Source of the DNA: Escherichia coli
GTDB taxonomy: Bacteria > Pseudomonadota > Gammaproteobacteria > Enterobacterales > Enterobacteriaceae
Strand: one strand, 5' to 3'
Assembly: GCF_003334765.1 (NCBI RefSeq)
Contig: NZ_QOWT01000003.1
DNA: 64,000 bases
Below, piece after piece: positions 2,276 through 49,170 of the stretch. The translations under genes were made by a program, and so were the position numbers. The stretch's first letter is position 1. Each line of letters starts with the position of its first letter. The notes below the pieces were generated by a model that searched no databases, was not told the origin of the DNA, and was given only the letters and a program-made list of their open reading frames with translations.

Positions 2276-3529
2276 ATGTCAGGATCCAACACTGCAATCA
2301 GCCGTCGTCGTTTACTGCAAGGCGCGGGTGCCATGTGGCTATTGAGCGTAAGTCAGGTCAGTCTGGCTGCGGTCAGCCAGGTCGTGGCGGTGCGCGTCTG
2401 GCCTGCGTCCAGCTACACCCGCGTGACGGTGGAATCAAATCGTCAGCTGAAATATAAGCAGTTCGCGTTGAGTAACCCTGAACGCGTGGTGGTGGATATC
2501 GAAGATGTAAACCTGAACTCGGTACTCAAGGGGATGGCGGCACAAATTCGTGCAGACGACCCGTTCATCAAGTCGGCGCGCGTCGGGCAATTTGACCCGC
2601 AAACCGTACGGATGGTTTTTGAATTAAAGCAAAACGTAAAACCGCAGCTGTTTGCCCTTGCGCCGGTCGCCGGGTTTAAAGAGCGTCTGGTGATGGACCT
2701 CTATCCGGCCAATGCACAGGATATGCAGGACCCGCTGCTGGCGCTGCTGGAGGATTACAACAAAGGCGACCTCGAAAAGCAGGTGCCGCCAGCGCAAAGT
2801 GGTCCACAACCGGGTAAAGCAGGGCGCGATCGTCCGATTGTCATTATGCTTGACCCTGGCCACGGTGGCGAAGACTCCGGTGCGGTGGGGAAATACAAAA
2901 CGCGCGAAAAAGATGTGGTATTGCAAATAGCTCGCCGTTTGCGCTCTCTGATCGAGAAAGAGGGCAATATGAAGGTGTACATGACGCGCAATGAAGACAT
3001 CTTCATTCCATTGCAAGTGCGCGTAGCAAAAGCCCAGAAACAGCGTGCTGACCTGTTTGTCTCTATCCATGCCGACGCCTTTACCAGTCGTCAGCCGAGC
3101 GGTTCCTCTGTGTTTGCGCTCTCAACCAAAGGTGCAACCAGTACTGCGGCAAAATATCTGGCACAAACCCAGAACGCCTCGGACTTGATTGGTGGCGTGA
3201 GCAAAAGCGGTGACCGCTATGTCGACCACACCATGTTCGATATGGTACAGTCGCTGACCATTGCCGACAGCCTGAAGTTTGGTAAAGCGGTACTGAATAA
3301 GCTCGGTAAAATCAACAAGCTGCATAAAAATCAAGTTGAACAGGCCGGGTTTGCCGTACTAAAGGCACCAGATATTCCCTCCATTCTGGTCGAAACGGCG
3401 TTTATCAGTAACGTTGAGGAAGAGCGTAAACTGAAAACGGCGACTTTCCAGCAGGAAGTTGCGGAGTCTATTCTTGCGGGGATTAAAGCGTATTTTGCCG
3501 ATGGGGCGACGCTGGCGAGAAGGGGATGA
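2276..3529 (+). CDS. amiC: N-acetylmuramoyl-L-alanine amidase AmiC (Tat signal, RRRLLQGAG)
   Basis: ORF-track frame 2186..3529; ATG at 2276 gives [18 protein letters not shown]... with a twin-arginine motif and an amidase_3 domain (DPGHGG). Confidence 0.93.
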
Positions 3530-3571
3530 TAAAAAGGCGCTGAATGGCGCTTTTTTATGGGAGACCAGAAA

Positions 3572-3596
3572 CAAAAAAACACCCGTTAGGGTGTTC
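3572..3596 (-). terminator. Rho-independent terminator downstream of the tRNA gene
   Basis: Minus-strand hairpin aacaccc-taa-cgggtgtt followed by a run of T, immediately 3' of the tRNA. Coordinates approximate. Confidence 0.55.
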
Positions 3597-3602
3597 AATA
3601 AT

Positions 3603-5223: not shown

Positions 5224-6030
5224 ATGTCTGTGGTAATTAGTGATGCATGGCGTCAGCGTTTTGGTGGCACAGCGCGTCTGTATGGTGAAAAAGCGTTGCA
5301 ACTGTTTGCTGACGCGCATATTTGTGTGGTTGGTATCGGTGGTGTCGGTTCCTGGGCGGCGGAAGCGCTGGCGCGCACGGGGATTGGCGCAATCACGCTT
5401 ATCGATATGGATGATGTGTGCGTCACCAATACCAATCGGCAAATTCATGCCCTGCGCGATAACGTTGGGCTGGCAAAAGCGGAAGTTATGGCGGAGCGTA
5501 TTCGCCAGATTAACCCGGAGTGCCGTGTAACGGTGGTGGATGATTTCGTGACGCCGGATAACGTAGCGCAGTATATGAGCGTGGGTTATTCGTACGTGAT
5601 TGATGCCATTGATAGTGTACGGCCCAAAGCGGCGCTGATTGCTTATTGTCGGCGCAATAAAATCCCACTGGTCACAACCGGTGGCGCGGGTGGGCAGATT
5701 GATCCGACGCAGATTCAGGTTACCGATCTGGCGAAAACGATTCAGGACCCGCTGGCGGCGAAGTTGCGCGAGCGCCTGAAAAGCGATTTTGGCGTAGTGA
5801 AAAACAGTAAAGGTAAGCTCGGCGTGGATTGCGTGTTTTCTACTGAAGCGCTGGTGTACCCGCAGTCAGACGGTACGGTGTGTGCGATGAAAGCCACGGC
5901 AGAAGGGCCGAAGCGGATGGATTGTGCATCTGGATTTGGCGCGGCAACGATGGTGACCGCCACCTTTGGGTTTGTTGCGGTTTCTCATGCGCTGAAGAAG
6001 ATGATGGCGAAAGCGGCGCGTCAGGGTTAA
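5224..6030 (+). CDS. tcdA: tRNA threonylcarbamoyladenosine dehydratase (E1-like, ThiF/MoeB fold)
   Basis: 268-aa ORF with the GxGxxG motif VGIGGVGSWAAEAL; matches TcdA (CsdL/YgdL); adjacent to csdE-csdA. Confidence 0.9.
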   Translation: MSVVISDAWRQRFGGTARLYGEKALQLFADAHICVVGIGGVGSWAAEALARTGIGAITLIDMDDVCVTNTNRQIHALRDNVGLAKAEVMAERIRQINPECRVTVVDDFVTPDNVAQYMSVGYSYVIDAIDSVRPKAALIAYCRRNKIPLVTTGGAGGQIDPTQIQVTDLAKTIQDPLAAKLRERLKSDFGVVKNSKGKLGVDCVFSTEALVYPQSDGTVCAMKATAEGPKRMDCASGFGAATMVTATFGFVAVSHALKKMMAKAARQG

Positions 6031-44482: not shown

Positions 44483-45355
44483 TTACCAGCGGCCGGATGC
44501 GCCGCCACCTCCAGAAGAACCGCCCCCGCCGCTAAATCCGCCGCTATCTGAGCCTCCAGCGGAACCGCTGTTGTCTGAATGATAACTTCTACCAGATGCT
44601 CTTTTCTGAAGTACACATAAACAGGTAAAGACCATAAATATGGTGAAAGTAAAAAAGAAGGAAAATACAGCAATGGAAAAAATTTTATCGGAGAACAGGA
44701 ATAAATCTAAAAGATAGATTGCTGAAATACAGACTCCACTTTTACATGCGCGACAAAAATTACTGCCTTGATGAAAAAACCAGAAAGGGAAGAACATCAC
44801 TGCAAATACCCAAAAAATAGCAAAGTAATAATGATCACTGGAAGACGCTGATTCACTTTCTGAAGGATTAGTCGGATATTGGTGTTGTGAAGTGAGTTGG
44901 TTATTCAAAGCGTTTATAGCTAGCTCTAATCCCTTAGCTAATTTTTGTTGTTTAAATGCGGGTATCATGTTGCTACGGATGATATCTCCAGCCAGAGCAT
45001 CGGTTACCTTTTCTTCCAGCCCATAACCTACCTGGATGCGGACAGTGCGATCCGACCAGGCAACAACGATCAGTATCCCATCATTACGTTTGGCATCTCC
45101 TAAACGCCAATTGTCAAAAACTCTTGTAGCATATTGTTCAATTGTCTCGTCTTTGGTTGTGGGAACAATTAATACGGCAATTTGCACTTGGGTATTATTG
45201 AAAATAGATTCTAACTTGTGCGTCAGTTCTTTCTTTTCTTGTGAGTTTAAGCTACTCGTAAGATCCGTAACTTGTTGCTGTAATTGTGGGACAATAGTTG
45301 GTTGGGCTGCAACAAAGGAACATACGAAAGTGAACATTAGTATGAAATAGCGCAT
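44483..45355 (-). CDS. ygcG: TPM-domain membrane protein with Gly/Ser-rich C-terminal tail
   Basis: ORF-track frame 44483..45424; probable start at the ATG at 45355 ([17 protein letters not shown], signal peptide); C-terminus ...[24 protein letters not shown]. Confidence 0.8.
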
Positions 45356-45647
45356 TATAAATTTCTCATTAAATCTGGATAAATAAATTGACGGCGGCAT
45401 CGGTAATTTTATATTCGTTATCATTAAAAACTAATACAGAAAAAATAAATATAATTTTGGTGAATGTTTTGACATGATTAAATCCATTTTCTTTATTTTC
45501 TTCTGACATAATACGTTACTCCCTTTAATTATTAACGATATGTTTCGCATTTTTCTTTAAACCTGCCTGTAACAGAATGTTAATAAGACATGATTGTTGT
45601 GGCAGGATCTGCAATAATTAACAATTATCCACTTCACAGAGAATGCT

Positions 45648-46319
45648 ATGCAGTACCCGATTAACGAGATGTTCCAGACCCTGCAAGGTGAGGGTTACTT
45701 TACCGGCGTTCCCGCCATTTTTATTCGTTTACAGGGATGCCCGGTTGGCTGTGCCTGGTGCGACACCAAACACACCTGGGAAAAGCTTGAGGATCGGGAA
45801 GTCTCCCTTTTCAGCATTCTGGCGAAGACCAAAGAGAGTGATAAGTGGGGGGCTGCGAGCAGTGAAGATTTGCTGGCTGTCATTGGTCGCCAGGGATACA
45901 CCGCGCGGCATGTGGTGATTACGGGTGGTGAGCCTTGCATTCATGATTTGCTGCCACTGACTGATCTGCTCGAAAAGAACGGTTTTAGCTGCCAGATCGA
46001 AACCAGTGGTACTCATGAGGTACGCTGCACACCGAATACCTGGGTTACCGTATCGCCAAAGCTGAACATGCGCGGCGGCTATGAAGTGTTGTCACAGGCA
46101 CTGGAGCGAGCCAACGAAATCAAGCATCCAGTGGGGCGCGTACGCGATATTGAAGCACTGGATGAACTACTGGCAACGCTGACCGATGATAAACCGCGAG
46201 TCATTGCACTGCAGCCGATTAGCCAAAAGGATGATGCCACACGTTTGTGCATTGAAACCTGCATTGCGCGTAATTGGCGTTTGTCGATGCAAACACATAA
46301 ATATCTAAATATTGCCTGA
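45648..46319 (+). CDS. queE: 7-carboxy-7-deazaguanine synthase (radical SAM)
   Basis: 223-aa ORF with CxxxCxxC-type motif (GCPVGCAWCDT); matches QueE (YgcF). Confidence 0.92.
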   Translation: MQYPINEMFQTLQGEGYFTGVPAIFIRLQGCPVGCAWCDTKHTWEKLEDREVSLFSILAKTKESDKWGAASSEDLLAVIGRQGYTARHVVITGGEPCIHDLLPLTDLLEKNGFSCQIETSGTHEVRCTPNTWVTVSPKLNMRGGYEVLSQALERANEIKHPVGRVRDIEALDELLATLTDDKPRVIALQPISQKDDATRLCIETCIARNWRLSMQTHKYLNIA

Positions 46320-46439
46320 TTAAACATTTATAAGCGTTATAAATGGGTGGAACCTGTAAAGACTTCTACTCATTTATATTGTTTGTCGCCTCTGAAAACT
46401 CCTCCATTTTACCCATCCAGGGCTAATCATTAGCATTCT

Positions 46440-46658
46440 CTACAAATTCTGTGGCATTAATTTTTCGCTGGAGTGAAAATTATTGCGGTAAAGTTTGGTA
46501 GATTTTAGTTTGTATAGAGTTATTTTAAATATTTACCTTTTTAATCAATGGATTAAGTGCTCTTTAACATAATGGATGTGTTGTTTGTGTGATACTATAA
46601 AGTTGGTAGATTGTGACTGGCTTAAAAAATCATTAATTAATAATAGGTTATGTTTAGA
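46440..46658 (+). promoter_or_regulatory. CRISPR leader (AT-rich)
   Basis: AT-rich stretch ending ...cattaattaataataggttatgtttaga immediately 5' of the first repeat; the distal repeat is the degenerate one, so transcription runs on the + strand. Confidence 0.6.
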
Positions 46659-47053
46659 GTGTTCCCCGCGCCAGCGGGGATAAACCGGCAAAAACCGGGC
46701 AATCGCAAAAAGGCGTAATGTGTTCCCCGCGCCAGCGGGGATAAACCTGTGTTTGCGGCATTAACGCTCACCAGCATTTCGTGTTCCCCGCGCCAGCGGG
46801 GATAAACCGACGTGGTCATGGGTGCTGCTGTTGCAGAGCCAGTGTTCCCCGCGCCAGCGGGGATAAACCGAGCAGATACACGGCTTTGTATTCCGTGCGC
46901 CCGTGTTCCCCGCGCCAGCGGGGATAAACCGAATAGCAATAGTCCATAGATTTGCGAAAACAGGTGTTCCCCGCGCCAGCGGGGATAAACCGGAGCCTGA
47001 CGAGACTACTGAGGCCGTTCTGTCGAGTTCCCCGCGCCAGCGGGGATAAACCA
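46659..47053 (+). CRISPR. Type I-E CRISPR array, 7 repeats and 6 spacers, no cas genes in window
   Basis: 29-bp repeat GTGTTCCCCGCGCCAGCGGGGATAAACCG starting at 46659, 46720, 46781, 46842, 46903, 46964 and 47025 (exact 61-bp period, 32-bp spacers); the last repeat is degenerate (GAG..., final base A). Positions cross-checked against ORF-track frames that translate the repeats. Confidence 0.97.
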
Positions 47054-47523
47054 CCATATAACCCGTTATCTCTTTCTCAAGTTTTTATATTAGCAGTACT
47101 TGTAATAAGCAACATATCCACGTAACACCTCATGTTCAAAATAGTTCTCCATGCCAGAGAGGTTCACAATTATCGATACAAAAAATTAAATTTAATCAAA
47201 GTGTTATTTGTATGATTCTTAAATCGTTAAGAAATTTTAATCTATTATTTTTTTAATATTGAATTAATGCCTGTTAATTTTTTCTTTAGAATAACAGTAT
47301 ATTTTTTAAGCTTGTTATTCATTGGTTAAGTAATAAATCTGGAAGTTTGTCTTTGTTTTGAGGCTAATGAGTGGTTTTACATAACCGCCTCTATACGCTG
47401 TTGATGAATAGTTCTTATGAATAAAGATATCCAGTTCATACTTTAAGTGAAAATTGATAAAGTGCGATTCGTATTGTCTTTTATTCTAAAGACATCGAGT
47501 GTAGTTAATATTCCTTGTAAAAA

Positions 47524-47644
47524 CAGGGATAAACCGAACTAGTTAAAGTTTTTATTATGTTCCCTGCATCAGCGGGGATAAACCGGACTTGTTATCATTT
47601 TTTAAGTTGTCGAACTTATGTTCCCCGCGTCAGCGGGGATAACC
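47524..47644 (+). CRISPR. Degenerate CRISPR mini-array (2 decayed repeats plus a partial repeat)
   Basis: cagggataaaccg (partial), atgttccctgcatcagcggggataaaccg at 47557 and atgttccccgcgtcagcggggataacc at 47618; 61-bp period between the last two; preceded by about 470 bp of very AT-rich DNA. Confidence 0.8.
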
Positions 47645-47691
47645 ATTCAGGTATGTTCAGGCCGGGCAGTTTCCCGCCCGGCCTTCCTCAC

Positions 47692-49170
47692 TTACGCATT
47701 CGACCAGCTCTGGATCGAATCCACATTCCCCAATTCCCCATGCATCACTTCATACGATTTTTTCAGGATCACATCAGTATGTTTGGTTAGGTCTTTGAAA
47801 ATGCCTTTATTCATCGCGTCGTAGCGTTTGGCATTGCTCTCAATCGGTATAAAGATATCTTTCACGCGAACCATGTTATCGACAGCCGTTGCGTAATCCG
47901 GGTATAGCCCCAGACCTACCGCTGTATTAATCGCTGCCCCCAGGCTTGCACAACCGTTAATGGCGTTACGTCGTGCCGGAAGGTTGAACACGTCGGCAAA
48001 AATCTGCATAAACAGATCGCTGTTCGAACCGCCGCCAGTAATGATCACATGCTTCGCAAAGTGATTCATTTCATTACACATATTGTCGTAATTGTTCTTC
48101 AGCGTCAGCGCCACGCTTTCCAGTATCGAACGATATATCCATGCGTAATCCATGCTGGAATCAAAGCCGATCATAATCCCGCGTTTGTACGGTTCCCACG
48201 GATTGGTCAGCCAGTCCAGCACCGTCATCAGACCATTACAGCCTGGCGGCACACAAGAAGCTTTTTTGTTGAGTAAATCTTCCGGTGAAAGATCCTGCGC
48301 CCTGGCATCCTGAATTAACGACTCGCCTAGCATGTCGCGCAGCCAGCTCACCGTCCACATGCCTTTGCGAATACCGTAACCTTCATACAGCAATGTTTGC
48401 GGAATAGAAGACATAATCGGCCAGTACGCTACTGGATCTTTCGGCAGTGCTTTGCCGTTCATCATCAATGCGATGTAAGTGCCAAGAGAAATTACCGCCG
48501 TTTCATCATCCAGTAATCCGGCCCCCAGAGCTTCTACCGGTTTATCACTGGTGGTACAAACAACCGGCAGTCCTGCCGGGAAATGTGTCGCCAGTGCGGC
48601 TTGTGGTGTGATATGTCCGAGGACGGTGCCAGGCATTTGCACATCAAACAGCATATGACGGGGGATATTAAACTTATCCATTACCGCAGCATCTTCGCTC
48701 CATGCCCAGCTCTTATAATCCACCGGCCACTGACCAAAATAGTTGGCGATATTGTCTTTAAACTCGCCGGTTAAGCGATGCGTCAGATAACCCGAAAAAG
48801 AGGTGACATATGCCACGTCAGGGTTAGTGTGTTCGTAAGGGCGTGTAACGCGTGCATCCTGCCAGCTAATCAACGGCGCAGCAGGCGTGCCATCGGCTTT
48901 CAATAACGCACGGCAGCAACGGATGGATCCCAGACCAATACCGACAATATCTTCTTTATTCCCGGCAAACTGACTCATCAAATCGTGACCGGCAAAACAT
49001 AATGATGCCCATAAATCGTCGTCAGGATGTTCTGCAGTATCGGCATCTGGCGTGTGCATCGGCTGTAATAAGCCTTTGCCTTCGCAAACCACGTTACCTT
49101 CCAGATCGTACATCACCACTTTTGTGCTCTGACTTCCGCCATCAATCCCTATGATGTATTTTTTCGACAT
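47692..49170 (-). CDS. ygcE: FGGY-family sugar kinase (substrate unknown)
   Basis: 492-aa ORF with the FGGY N-terminus MSKKYIIGIDGGSQSTKVVMYD; matches YgcE. Confidence 0.88.
   Translation of the reverse strand: MSKKYIIGIDGGSQSTKVVMYDLEGNVVCEGKGLLQPMHTPDADTAEHPDDDLWASLCFAGHDLMSQFAGNKEDIVGIGLGSIRCCRALLKADGTPAAPLISWQDARVTRPYEHTNPDVAYVTSFSGYLTHRLTGEFKDNIANYFGQWPVDYKSWAWSEDAAVMDKFNIPRHMLFDVQMPGTVLGHITPQAALATHFPAGLPVVCTTSDKPVEALGAGLLDDETAVISLGTYIALMMNGKALPKDPVAYWPIMSSIPQTLLYEGYGIRKGMWTVSWLRDMLGESLIQDARAQDLSPEDLLNKKASCVPPGCNGLMTVLDWLTNPWEPYKRGIMIGFDSSMDYAWIYRSILESVALTLKNNYDNMCNEMNHFAKHVIITGGGSNSDLFMQIFADVFNLPARRNAINGCASLGAAINTAVGLGLYPDYATAVDNMVRVKDIFIPIESNAKRYDAMNKGIFKDLTKHTDVILKKSYEVMHGELGNVDSIQSWSNA

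Follow-up and report, generated by a model that had tools for sequence, protein, structure and literature searches.

The window analysed here is a 64,000-nucleotide stretch of Escherichia coli DNA (assembly GCF_003334765.1, contig NZ_QOWT01000003.1) whose CRISPR-II locus matches that of K-12 MG1655 at 100% identity and reads, in order, queE, leader2.3, CRISPR2.3, a 0.45-kb AT-rich block, CRISPR2.2 and ygcE. The left flank is queE (ygcF; 45648–46319, + strand), an open reading frame annotated under the former name in K-12. It is followed on the same strand by leader2.3 (46320–46658), the AT-rich (30% GC) leader of the main array, which aligns with leader2.1 and whose position is taken from PMC3903273 and PMC3737337. 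The main array itself, CRISPR2.3 (46659–47053, + strand), has seven repeats and six spacers at a 61-bp period, and its final repeat (47025–47053) is of the GAG type with a terminal A. On the right, ygcE (47692–49170, − strand), supported both as an open reading frame and by annotation, encodes an FGGY-family sugar kinase.

Immediately downstream of CRISPR2.3 lies the AT-rich block (47054–47507), whose 454 bp come close to the roughly 470 bp estimated in the preliminary description. Its GC content is 28.0%, compared with 50.7% for the whole window, with a minimum of 18% at 47200–47299, and it is carried by ~4,150 of 5,426 E. coli genomes; the block together with the mini-array was found at a coverage of at least 80% in 4124 of the 5426. 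Among the 78 promoter islands catalogued in PMC3661553 is one designated '2901670_347 ygcE/queE', which Table 1 of that study gives as H-NS-bound 'according to all studies' of ChIP compared. Moving its coordinates from U00096.2 to NC_000913.3 (an offset of about 1977) places the island, by inference, at 47073–47419 of the window, so that it coincides with the 5' three-quarters of the block and supports the earlier impression of H-NS-type DNA. Neither the mini-array nor the 90 bp preceding it lies in this island, and both are conserved, in contrast to the hypervariable island itself. The only open reading frame of at least 30 amino acids in the block, a 31-aa GTG frame at 47447–47542, is never annotated, and we rejected it as a small protein: it is absent from a collection of 15 billion proteins and has no Shine-Dalgarno sequence, and the five substitutions that strain XJ6.1 carries in it gave no clear coding signal.

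Between the block and ygcE are three decayed repeats and two intervening segments, all in + orientation: R1 (47508–47536), S1 (47537–47556, 20 nt, 15% GC), R2 (47557–47585), S2 (47586–47617, 32 nt, 28% GC) and R3 (47618–47645). R2 (ATGTTCCCTGCATCAGCGGGGATAAACCG) is identical to the K-12 consensus at 25 of 29 positions, and R3 (ATGTTCCCCGCGTCAGCGGGGAT-AACCA) at 26 of 28 aligned positions plus one gap, a 1-nt deletion toward its 3' part that leaves GATAACCA. The heavily decayed, partial R1 (ATATTCCTTGTAAAAACAGGGATAAACCG) retains 19 of 29 positions. The 61 bp from R2 to R3, with a 32-nt spacer, make a regular type I-E unit, while R1 starts 49 bp ahead of R2 with a 20-nt spacer, off the 61-bp period; the preliminary description had recognised two mutated repeats at that period and a partial one. 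When the window was searched with the 26-nt repeat core at up to three mismatches, nine matches were returned, all on the + strand and confined to the main array and the mini-array, against an expectation of 0.00 in shuffled sequence, which establishes the cluster of decayed type I-E repeats as real. Automated annotation overlooks it: Tandem Repeats Finder reported the main array and not the mini-array, and NCBI PGAP places its CRISPR feature on the main array only.

The decay runs in one direction. All ten substitutions in R1 and the two internal ones in R3 are changes from G/C to A/T, as are the four transitions in R2. R1 and R2 are repeat copies that had taken on ten and four such substitutions before the non-B2 E. 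coli lineages diverged. The three repeats fold in a common register with a 7-bp stem and a 4-nt loop, at predicted energies of −7.9 (R1), −12.1 (R2) and −15.1 kcal/mol (R3), compared with −15.2 kcal/mol for the consensus. The R2 stem is retained with one G-U pair, and the R1 hairpin survives two double changes from C-G to U-A and one G-U pair, with the 3' GGGATAAACCG of R1 untouched. R1 and R2 carry the AUAAACCG handle intact, whereas R3 has lost one nucleotide of it. The first base is A in R1, R2 and R3 and G in the CRISPR2.3 repeats; this shared A could mean that the three were once propagated from a leader-proximal repeat of their own. We also considered R1-S1 as a tandem duplicate of R2-S2 and rejected the idea, as the similarity of S1 to S2 was not significant (P = 0.085) and the 10-mers that the two units have in common (AAGTTTTTAT and ATTTTTTAAG) are at chance level for the composition by our own estimate.

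We propose, with high confidence, that this feature is the published CRISPR2.2, a fossil array of three repeats and two spacers at the ygcE end of the type I-E CRISPR-II locus. Everything in the published accounts agrees with what we found, with no differences: PMC4489801 and PMC3903273 describe a K-12 element in the ygcE-queE interval with three repeats, two invariable spacers and no leader assigned. The name is in use in those two papers and in PMC3737337, and both PMC3903273 and PMC3737337 have CRISPR2.2 and CRISPR2.3 'separated by 0.5 kb'. PMC11251922 credits the name to Diez-Villasenor et al. 2010, and the locus has been named and counted since that year. What our analysis adds to the published CRISPR2.2 are genome-scale counts, the directional decay, R3 as a genus-wide terminal repeat and an unusually low diversity.

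On comparative evidence, the spacers look like those of an inactive array. S2 is unchanged in 4049 of 4063 genomes and S1 is without variation among 13 strains; this constancy in about 4,000 genomes argues that the mini-array is past acquiring spacers and would have no adaptation activity of its own. Searches for what the spacers might recognise were negative throughout. No protospacer of S2 was found in phages, plasmids or the cas locus, matches of the spacers to phages were no better than chance (E of 0.3 or more), as were those to plasmids, and E. coli genomes contained no second copy of S2. The idea of S2 as a self-targeting or cas-regulating guide was dropped, since its best match to the 13-kb cas locus, 19 of 32 positions, equals the null expectation (mean 18.9), and neither S1 nor S2 had partial complementarity above chance to the cas promoters or the cas operon.

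R3 and its flank extend the locus beyond K-12. They are common to six of the loci compared (L002, L003, L012, L013, L014 and L016), and the fused CRISPR2.2-3 arrays, like those of E. albertii and E. whittamii, end in a terminal repeat identical to R3. The alignments show R3 to be the old degenerate terminal repeat of the locus, common to the Escherichia lineages compared. The fused arrays, found in B2 strains such as LF82 and in some other E. coli, share with K-12 the same leader2.3, terminal repeat (GTTCCCCGCGTCAGCGGGGATAACC), ATTCAGG flank and ygcE hairpin, but they are without the AT block, R1, S1, R2 and S2; moreover, their terminal repeat begins GAG whereas R3 of K-12 begins ATG, and that of L013 is visibly a hybrid. 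In the preliminary description, failure of a CRISPR finder to call the repeats combined with a lack of synteny with intact arrays in related strains had been named as grounds for giving up its reading, and an alignment with the CRISPR2 loci of other strains had been suggested. The finders do miss the mini-array; the comparison shows R3 and its flank to be syntenic with both fused and intact arrays, and the reading stands.

This distribution raises the question of how the split arrangement arose. One explanation, to which we give slightly less than an even chance, is that the ancestral single array ended in R3 and that ~0.56 kb comprising the AT block and R1-S1-R2-S2 entered later, in an ancestor of the non-B2 E. 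coli, either inserted directly or acquired through recombination with a foreign array, thereby splitting CRISPR2.3 from CRISPR2.2. The block is missing from E. albertii (L014), E. whittamii (L016) and the B2-type haplotype (L003, L012 and L013), all of which retain R3 and its flank; a CRISPR2.2-3 of two repeats has been reported in LF82 (B2); and the queE-adjacent I-E arrays of Phytobacter and Pseudocitrobacter have no such block. A single gain is also more parsimonious than at least four losses, and the region was found to be foreign-like by two methods (PMC3661553). Deletions from repeat to repeat do occur here, however, as seen in L013, where the single repeat is a hybrid that joins the GCACCAGC loop of an internal repeat to the GATAACCATTCAGG end of R3. 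Likewise, the fused strain TUM14759 is nested among split-form strains by ygcE identity (97.0–97.7%), which makes at least a part of the fused forms secondary, and the outgroups without the block all have tiny arrays (1–3 repeats) that may themselves be products of deletion. R2-S2-R3 holds the 61-bp register of a native array exactly, and a donor sequence was not found in phages or plasmids. Mobile DNA was rejected as an identity for the AT block, which had no blastn match in 50,697 phage records and, among 72,556 plasmids, matched nothing but three E. coli chromosomes carrying a wrong plasmid label. Any tree-based polarity of the change is further weakened by the haplotypes of queE and the leader, which are as deep as the divergence between species, and the comparison rests on a contig scan with E. 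albertii, E. whittamii and one atypical 'E. coli' among the matches listed; E. fergusonii, E. marmotae, E. ruysiae and Salmonella were not among the matches listed.

The fossil CRISPR2.2 varies less between strains than a dead array should. Nucleotide diversity (π), estimated from small, non-random sets of 9–13 strains, was 0.0057 in the mini-array, compared with 0.067–0.079 at third-codon positions of ygcE and 0.058 in the functional leader. In sliding windows across 13 strains, π was at most 0.026 over 47416–47625, a nearly invariant core consisting of the last 90 bp of the AT block and R1-S1-R2-S2, and at most 0.010 over 47476–47625, where the strains sampled showed less polymorphism than anywhere else between queE and ygcE; the half of the block that carries the promoter island is hypervariable (π about 0.06–0.12). 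Counts of variable columns gave the same picture, with 3 of 137 in the mini-array versus 27 of 151 ygcE third-codon positions (Fisher p = 9e-6), and 13 of 295 in segment B1 plus the mini-array versus 47 of 295 in the 5' half of the block (p = 4e-6). At the genome scale, the core region is at least 99% identical to K-12 in 3696 of 4168 genomes, a level that the adjacent ygcE coding DNA reaches in 1448 of 5373. K-12 and 675SK2 illustrate this well: they are 9% apart in queE and the leader and 4% in ygcE, yet differ at only 2 of 295 positions in B1 plus the mini-array. Decay of the repeats did not continue to the present, as the preliminary description had supposed in calling the array degenerating; it predates the split of the sampled non-B2 E. 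coli and ended long ago, leaving a relic that now varies less than either the functional leader or the adjacent coding DNA.

A dead relic would drift, and the low diversity of 47476–47625 counts against that plain explanation and points to constraint or a recent sweep. It is conceivable, though in our judgement improbable, that 47416–47625 is a fossil array kept unchanged by selection or by a sweep that recently passed through the whole species, its repeats reused in a Cas-independent job. Candidates for such a job are RNA hairpins that end or stabilise the convergent CRISPR2.3 and yqcE-ygcE transcripts, a small RNA, and a protein-binding boundary beside the H-NS island. Selection would account for the lowest diversity of the whole interval, for the excess of K-12-like genomes over that seen for ygcE and for the near identity of K-12 and 675SK2 within diverged surroundings, and the R1 hairpin, kept through double changes, would fit as well. 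That hairpin is not evidence on its own, because, by our own count, all pairs would survive random G/C-to-A/T transitions alone with a probability of ~0.16 (0.08 with the two double changes), and selection on it was rejected as a finding. The segment belongs to no Rfam family (at E of 1 or less, the only match was a spurious one of 15.7 bits within the first repeat), the core is without a promoter or terminator consensus, and the sole open reading frame, that of 31 aa, lacks a Shine-Dalgarno sequence and is never called as a gene. Entire lineages, namely B2, the scr-island strains and the fused forms, survive without the segment, and the ygcE-ygcF intergenic region, at a position that is not given exactly, serves as a neutral site for reporter integration. 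The small, non-random strain set behind the π estimates also tells against selection.

We consider it similarly doubtful that CRISPR2.2 is or was an independent array with the AT block as its own decayed leader, so that the locus would comprise two tandem leader-array units in the same orientation, as the preliminary description had proposed. The block is AT-rich and non-coding, lies immediately upstream of the repeats in the right orientation and contains many promoter-like sites according to PMC3661553, and the common A at position 1 of R1–R3 would fit propagation from a separate first repeat. Leader2.1 and leader2.3, nevertheless, still align with each other end to end (z 3.3) up to the TTTAGA-repeat junction, while local alignments of the block had no significant similarity to leader2.3 (z 2.0) or leader2.1 (z 0.2); R1 is preceded by GTAGTTA and not by the TTTAGA junction. 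With blastn, the block gave weak matches to the two leaders that were not collinear with the repeat junction, and neither approach did better than shuffles, on which grounds we rejected the block as a leader. A sigma-70 consensus scan of the block found three sites versus 3.9 expected, that is no excess, although PMC3661553 used a different predictor. The invariant spacers also argue against a leader at work here, and so does the presence of the terminal repeat without the block in E. albertii, E. whittamii and B2-type E. coli. Leaders have been assigned to CRISPR2.1 and CRISPR2.3 only, and no leader2.2 is named (PMC3903273, PMC3737337). The AT block is shown to have no leader signature that such comparisons would detect. 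We also rejected the block as a fully eroded array: a scan that tolerated G-to-A and C-to-T changes gave as its best candidate relic 47142–47170, which matched 16 of 29 positions (P = 0.018 in dinucleotide shuffles) and varies between strains. A second candidate, at 47087, one period past the last CRISPR2.3 repeat, is weaker still, and the signal as a whole is too faint to support the claim.

That the repeats are accidental matches in AT-rich DNA is refuted: R1 by itself, at 19 of 29 positions, would be weak evidence, but shuffles give 0.00 expected matches for R2 and R3, which stand exactly 61 bp apart on the same strand as the main array, and R3 is orthologous to a terminal repeat in other species.

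As the fossil CRISPR2.2, the mini-array would be transcribed, if at all, by read-through from CRISPR2.3 once H-NS silencing is lifted. R2 and R3 retain a predicted Cas6e hairpin and R2 the AUAAACCG handle, so that a single 61-nt S2 crRNA could be cut out of such a transcript, a guide that would have no detectable target. The mini-array is followed by the GC-rich hairpin at 47660–47683 (GGCCGGGCAGTTTCCCGCCCGGCC), 8 nt past the ygcE stop codon. The preliminary description had noticed this palindrome beside the ygcE stop, as confirmed here, and had placed it three nucleotides too far to the left, at 47657–47680, in its account of the array. It folds at −27.5 kcal/mol (z −5.6) on the ygcE strand and −21.7 kcal/mol (z −4.2) on the + strand, and an Escherichia genome with no CRISPR at this place still carries it, two of its base pairs having changed in a compensatory way. 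Because of this conservation we do not regard it as part of the CRISPR; judged from sequence, it belongs to the ygcE 3' end, which it would serve. Neither strand has a run of five or more T at the hairpin, and a consensus terminator scan returned 0 terminators; its probable role is that of a 3'-end hairpin serving the ygcE and queE/CRISPR transcripts, which converge here.

CRISPR arrays generally end in degenerate terminal repeats, and R3 resembles these in being mutated at the leader-distal end, fixed in the population and farthest from the leader, but here it is separated from the live array by 0.5 kb of non-repeat DNA and two decayed repeats. A further known class for comparison is that of orphan mini-arrays and CRISPR-repeat-like regulatory RNAs. 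CRISPR2.2 has in common with them a very short repeat-spacer-repeat unit, a fixed spacer and a location far from the cas genes, and differs in having no above-chance complementarity to cas and no detected promoter of its own.

Since annotation pipelines skip CRISPR2.2, studies of E. coli that type spacers or count arrays can disagree by one array without this being noticed. The relic is also a rare, reportedly H-NS-bound stretch of DNA with a known ancestral sequence: the ancestor is the repeat consensus, which makes the course of decay directly legible, all changes going from G/C to A/T. If its present invariance does reflect selection, CRISPR repeats would have been reused outside immunity in E. 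coli.

The interval between queE (45648–46319, + strand) and the convergent ygcE (47692–49170, − strand) contains all the elements of decayed repeats behind an AT-rich stretch, as the preliminary description had proposed. Over 46200–47800 the sequence is 100% identical to MG1655 records, identifying the window as E. coli K-12. An AT-rich leader of 339 bp (leader2.3) separates queE from the main array, CRISPR2.3 (46659–47053), which comprises seven type I-E repeats, perfect or nearly so, with a period of 61 bp, and is followed by an AT block of 454 bp (47054–47507) with 28% GC, falling to 18% at 47200–47299. Three decayed repeats lie beyond it on the same strand as the main array: R1 (47508–47536; 19/29 positions matching the consensus), R2 (47557–47585; 25/29) and R3 (47618–47645; a 1-nt deletion), separated by S1 (20 nt) and S2 (32 nt), so that R2-S2-R3 retains the native 61-bp register. 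Allowing three mismatches at most, the 26-nt core of the repeat matched nine times in the 64 kb, all in the main array and this relic, against 0.00 in shuffled sequences. The last CRISPR2.3 repeat (47025–47053) is of GAG type (‘CRISPR-A’) with a final A, the other six being of GTG type (‘CRISPR-T’), and looks like an older variant kept at the leader-distal end.

The relic is already known. Type I-E arrays of E. coli comprise CRISPR2.1, adjoining cas, and CRISPR2.2 and CRISPR2.3 in the ygcE-ygcF(queE) ‘CRISPR-II’ region, with leaders named only beside CRISPR2.1 and CRISPR2.3 (PMC3903273, PMC3737337); R1-S1-R2-S2-R3 is exactly the CRISPR2.2 of K-12 in that literature, and the observation was accurate. 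In K-12 and in every split-form genome listed (those with the AT block between the two arrays), the PGAP annotation includes the main array alone, and Tandem Repeats Finder also missed the relic. Failure of finders had been named as one sign against a relic and does occur; the other, absence of synteny with intact arrays, does not hold, and the relic reading stands.

The proposal that the AT block is a second leader found no support. An end-to-end alignment of leader2.1, taken from K-12, with leader2.3 spans ~105 nt and reaches a common TTTAGA|repeat junction (z 3.3), whereas the AT block gave z values of 2.0 (leader2.3) and 0.2 (leader2.1), the sequence just before R1 is GTAGTTA, and blastn of the block against the leaders returned only short matches that were not collinear with the junction. 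S2 was unchanged in 4049 of 4063 genomes and S1 did not vary across 13 aligned strains, giving no sign of spacer acquisition, and the literature names no leader2.2. One point counts in favor of a second leader: R1–R3 begin with A and the CRISPR2.3 repeats with G, which may mean that they were propagated separately, or just that three further G-to-A transitions occurred.

Inside the block, 47142–47170 is a possible further repeat relic (TAGTTCTCCATGCCAGAGAGGTTCACAAT; 16/29 consensus positions, P = 0.018 by shuffles) whose GCCAG core is ATATG in O157-type alleles, and a weaker candidate (47087–47115) lies one 61–62-bp period past the last CRISPR2.3 repeat. Insertion sequences have repeatedly entered or landed beside the block in natural isolates, some with adjacent deletions (IS3 near window position 47123 in L104; IS1 and IS5 in H1/H24–H28/H31; IS1 with a deletion into ygcU in L004).

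In NC_000913.3, ygcE occupies 2901896–2903374, and U00096.2 and U00096.3 differ here by what we take to be an offset of ~1977 bp. With these coordinates and that offset, the 347-bp promoter island ‘2901670_347 ygcE(+)/queE(-)’, H-NS-bound ‘according to all studies’ (PMC3661553), maps to 47073–47419; the offset agrees with the position that it gives for the neighboring queE/ygcG island of that study. Published data support the suggestion that the block is typical of H-NS-silenced DNA.

Of 5426 complete E. coli genomes, 4124 carry the 636 bp from the main-array end to ygcE at a coverage of at least 80%, nearly all of them with 95–100% identity. Fused arrays (CRISPR2.2-3; L002, L003, L012, L013) instead run from leader2.3 through one to five repeats directly into a terminal repeat ending ...GTTCCCCGCGTCAGCGGGGATAACC, then ATTCAGGTATGTTCAGGCCGGGCAG, which is R3 with its flank. 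Both the array of E. albertii, which has three repeats, and that of E. whittamii, which has one, end in this terminal repeat and flank, and R3 is therefore the old terminal repeat of the CRISPR-II locus across the genus.

A single gain of the AT block in non-B2 E. coli is about an even proposition. Neither E. albertii nor E. whittamii has the block, nor does the B2-type haplotype, whose ygcE places it with ST131 at 99.0%, and a two-repeat CRISPR2.2-3 has been reported for LF82. However, repeat-to-repeat deletion clearly happens (the single repeat of L013 is a hybrid), fused TUM14759 sits nested among split strains by ygcE, the native 61-bp register persists in R2-S2-R3, and the flank haplotypes are as deep as species divergence.

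A sucrose island occupies the locus in ST131-type B2 strains. This scr island (kinase, porin, PTS), already described at ygcE (PMC11251922), adjoins the gene on its downstream side, at the K-12 CRISPR-II position, in L011 (ST-131) and L103 (Z1323HEC0355). SCPM-O-B-8794 (L015, ‘E. coli’), a GTDB species-representative Escherichia genome, has a queE-ygcE gap of just 138 bp (5673–5810) with neither leader nor repeats. In strains A19 (L098) and EC11 (L099), ygcE is cut to its 3′ 456 bp and fused to queD-cysJ (2643–3600), apparently with loss of the genes that lay between ygcE and queD; the mini-array is intact. Upstream of queE (44483–45509), the K-12 yqcG/ygcG pair is replaced by LemA-family and TPM-domain genes in O157:H7 and O25:H1 (L003, L095), another sign of a mosaic neighborhood. 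Type I-E arrays lie directly downstream of queE in further Enterobacteriaceae genera, Phytobacter (L069, L084) and Pseudocitrobacter (L067), both without an AT block, and in a MAG (L087). An array site beside queE therefore predates Escherichia by far, or has been occupied more than once.

The GC-rich palindrome noted near ygcE exists, three bases to the right of the 47657–47680 first reported, at 47660–47683, 8 nt past the ygcE stop. Folding is strong in both orientations, with −27.5 kcal/mol (z −5.6) for the strand of ygcE and −21.7 (z −4.2) for the + strand. A homologous hairpin with two compensatory pair changes stands at the ygcE stop of CRISPR-less L015, which points to an element of the ygcE 3′ end or a convergent-transcript boundary rather than of CRISPR. 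The terminator scan found no U-run, and the hairpin is therefore not classed as an intrinsic terminator.

All substitutions in R1 (10), R2 (4) and the interior of R3 (2) run from G/C to A/T, and S1 and S2 have 15% and 28% GC compared with 34–59% in main-array spacers. R1–R3 all fold in the canonical register (7-bp stem, 4-nt loop). In R1, two C-G pairs have become U-A by double changes and one pair is G-U; by our count such retention has a chance of ~0.1 under transitions alone, so the hairpin is no proof of selection. The decay is old: K-12, O157:H7 and further divergent strains share the same relic.

‘Degenerating’ is the wrong tense: the relic is unexpectedly invariant. Among nine divergent strains, a small sample picked from hit lists, π was 0.0057 in the mini-array (3/137 columns variable: two substitutions, one gap), 0.019 at 47350–47507 (10/158), 0.063 in the 5′ half of the AT block (47/295), 0.058 in leader2.3 (42/339), 0.067–0.079 at ygcE third-codon positions (27/151; 3′ 455 bp) and 0.144 at those of queE (41/97), a contrast to be read with the caveat that the extremely AT-rich center of the block may be mutation-prone. 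Mini-array and ygcE third-codon variability differed at Fisher P = 9 × 10−6, and a 30-bp sliding window over 13 strains reached minimum diversity (π ≤ 0.010) at 47476–47625. Identity to K-12 of at least 99% was found over 47350–47640 in 3696 of 4168 genomes, a level reached in 2354/4162 by the 5′ half of the block and in 1448/5373 by adjacent ygcE coding DNA; K-12 and strain 675SK2, 9% apart in queE plus leader and 4% in ygcE, differ here at just 2 of 295 positions. Searches for a cause of this invariance gave no Rfam family, promoter or terminator consensus, or credible small ORF. S2 had no target among phages, among plasmids or in the cas locus, and E. coli genomes contained no further copy of it.

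The queE-leader2.3 segment (45648–46658; L095–L102) is unusually diverse within E. coli, K-12 being 91.0% identical to 675SK2 over the queE 3′ end plus leader, as distant as it is from E. albertii (92.9%). This suggests that the haplotypes here are very old or that introgression has occurred. The least polymorphic part of the queE-ygcE interval is 47416–47625, the mini-array and the 90 bp before it, whose flanks differ by 4–9% between the same strains, and its conservation is the one lead worth cheap follow-up.
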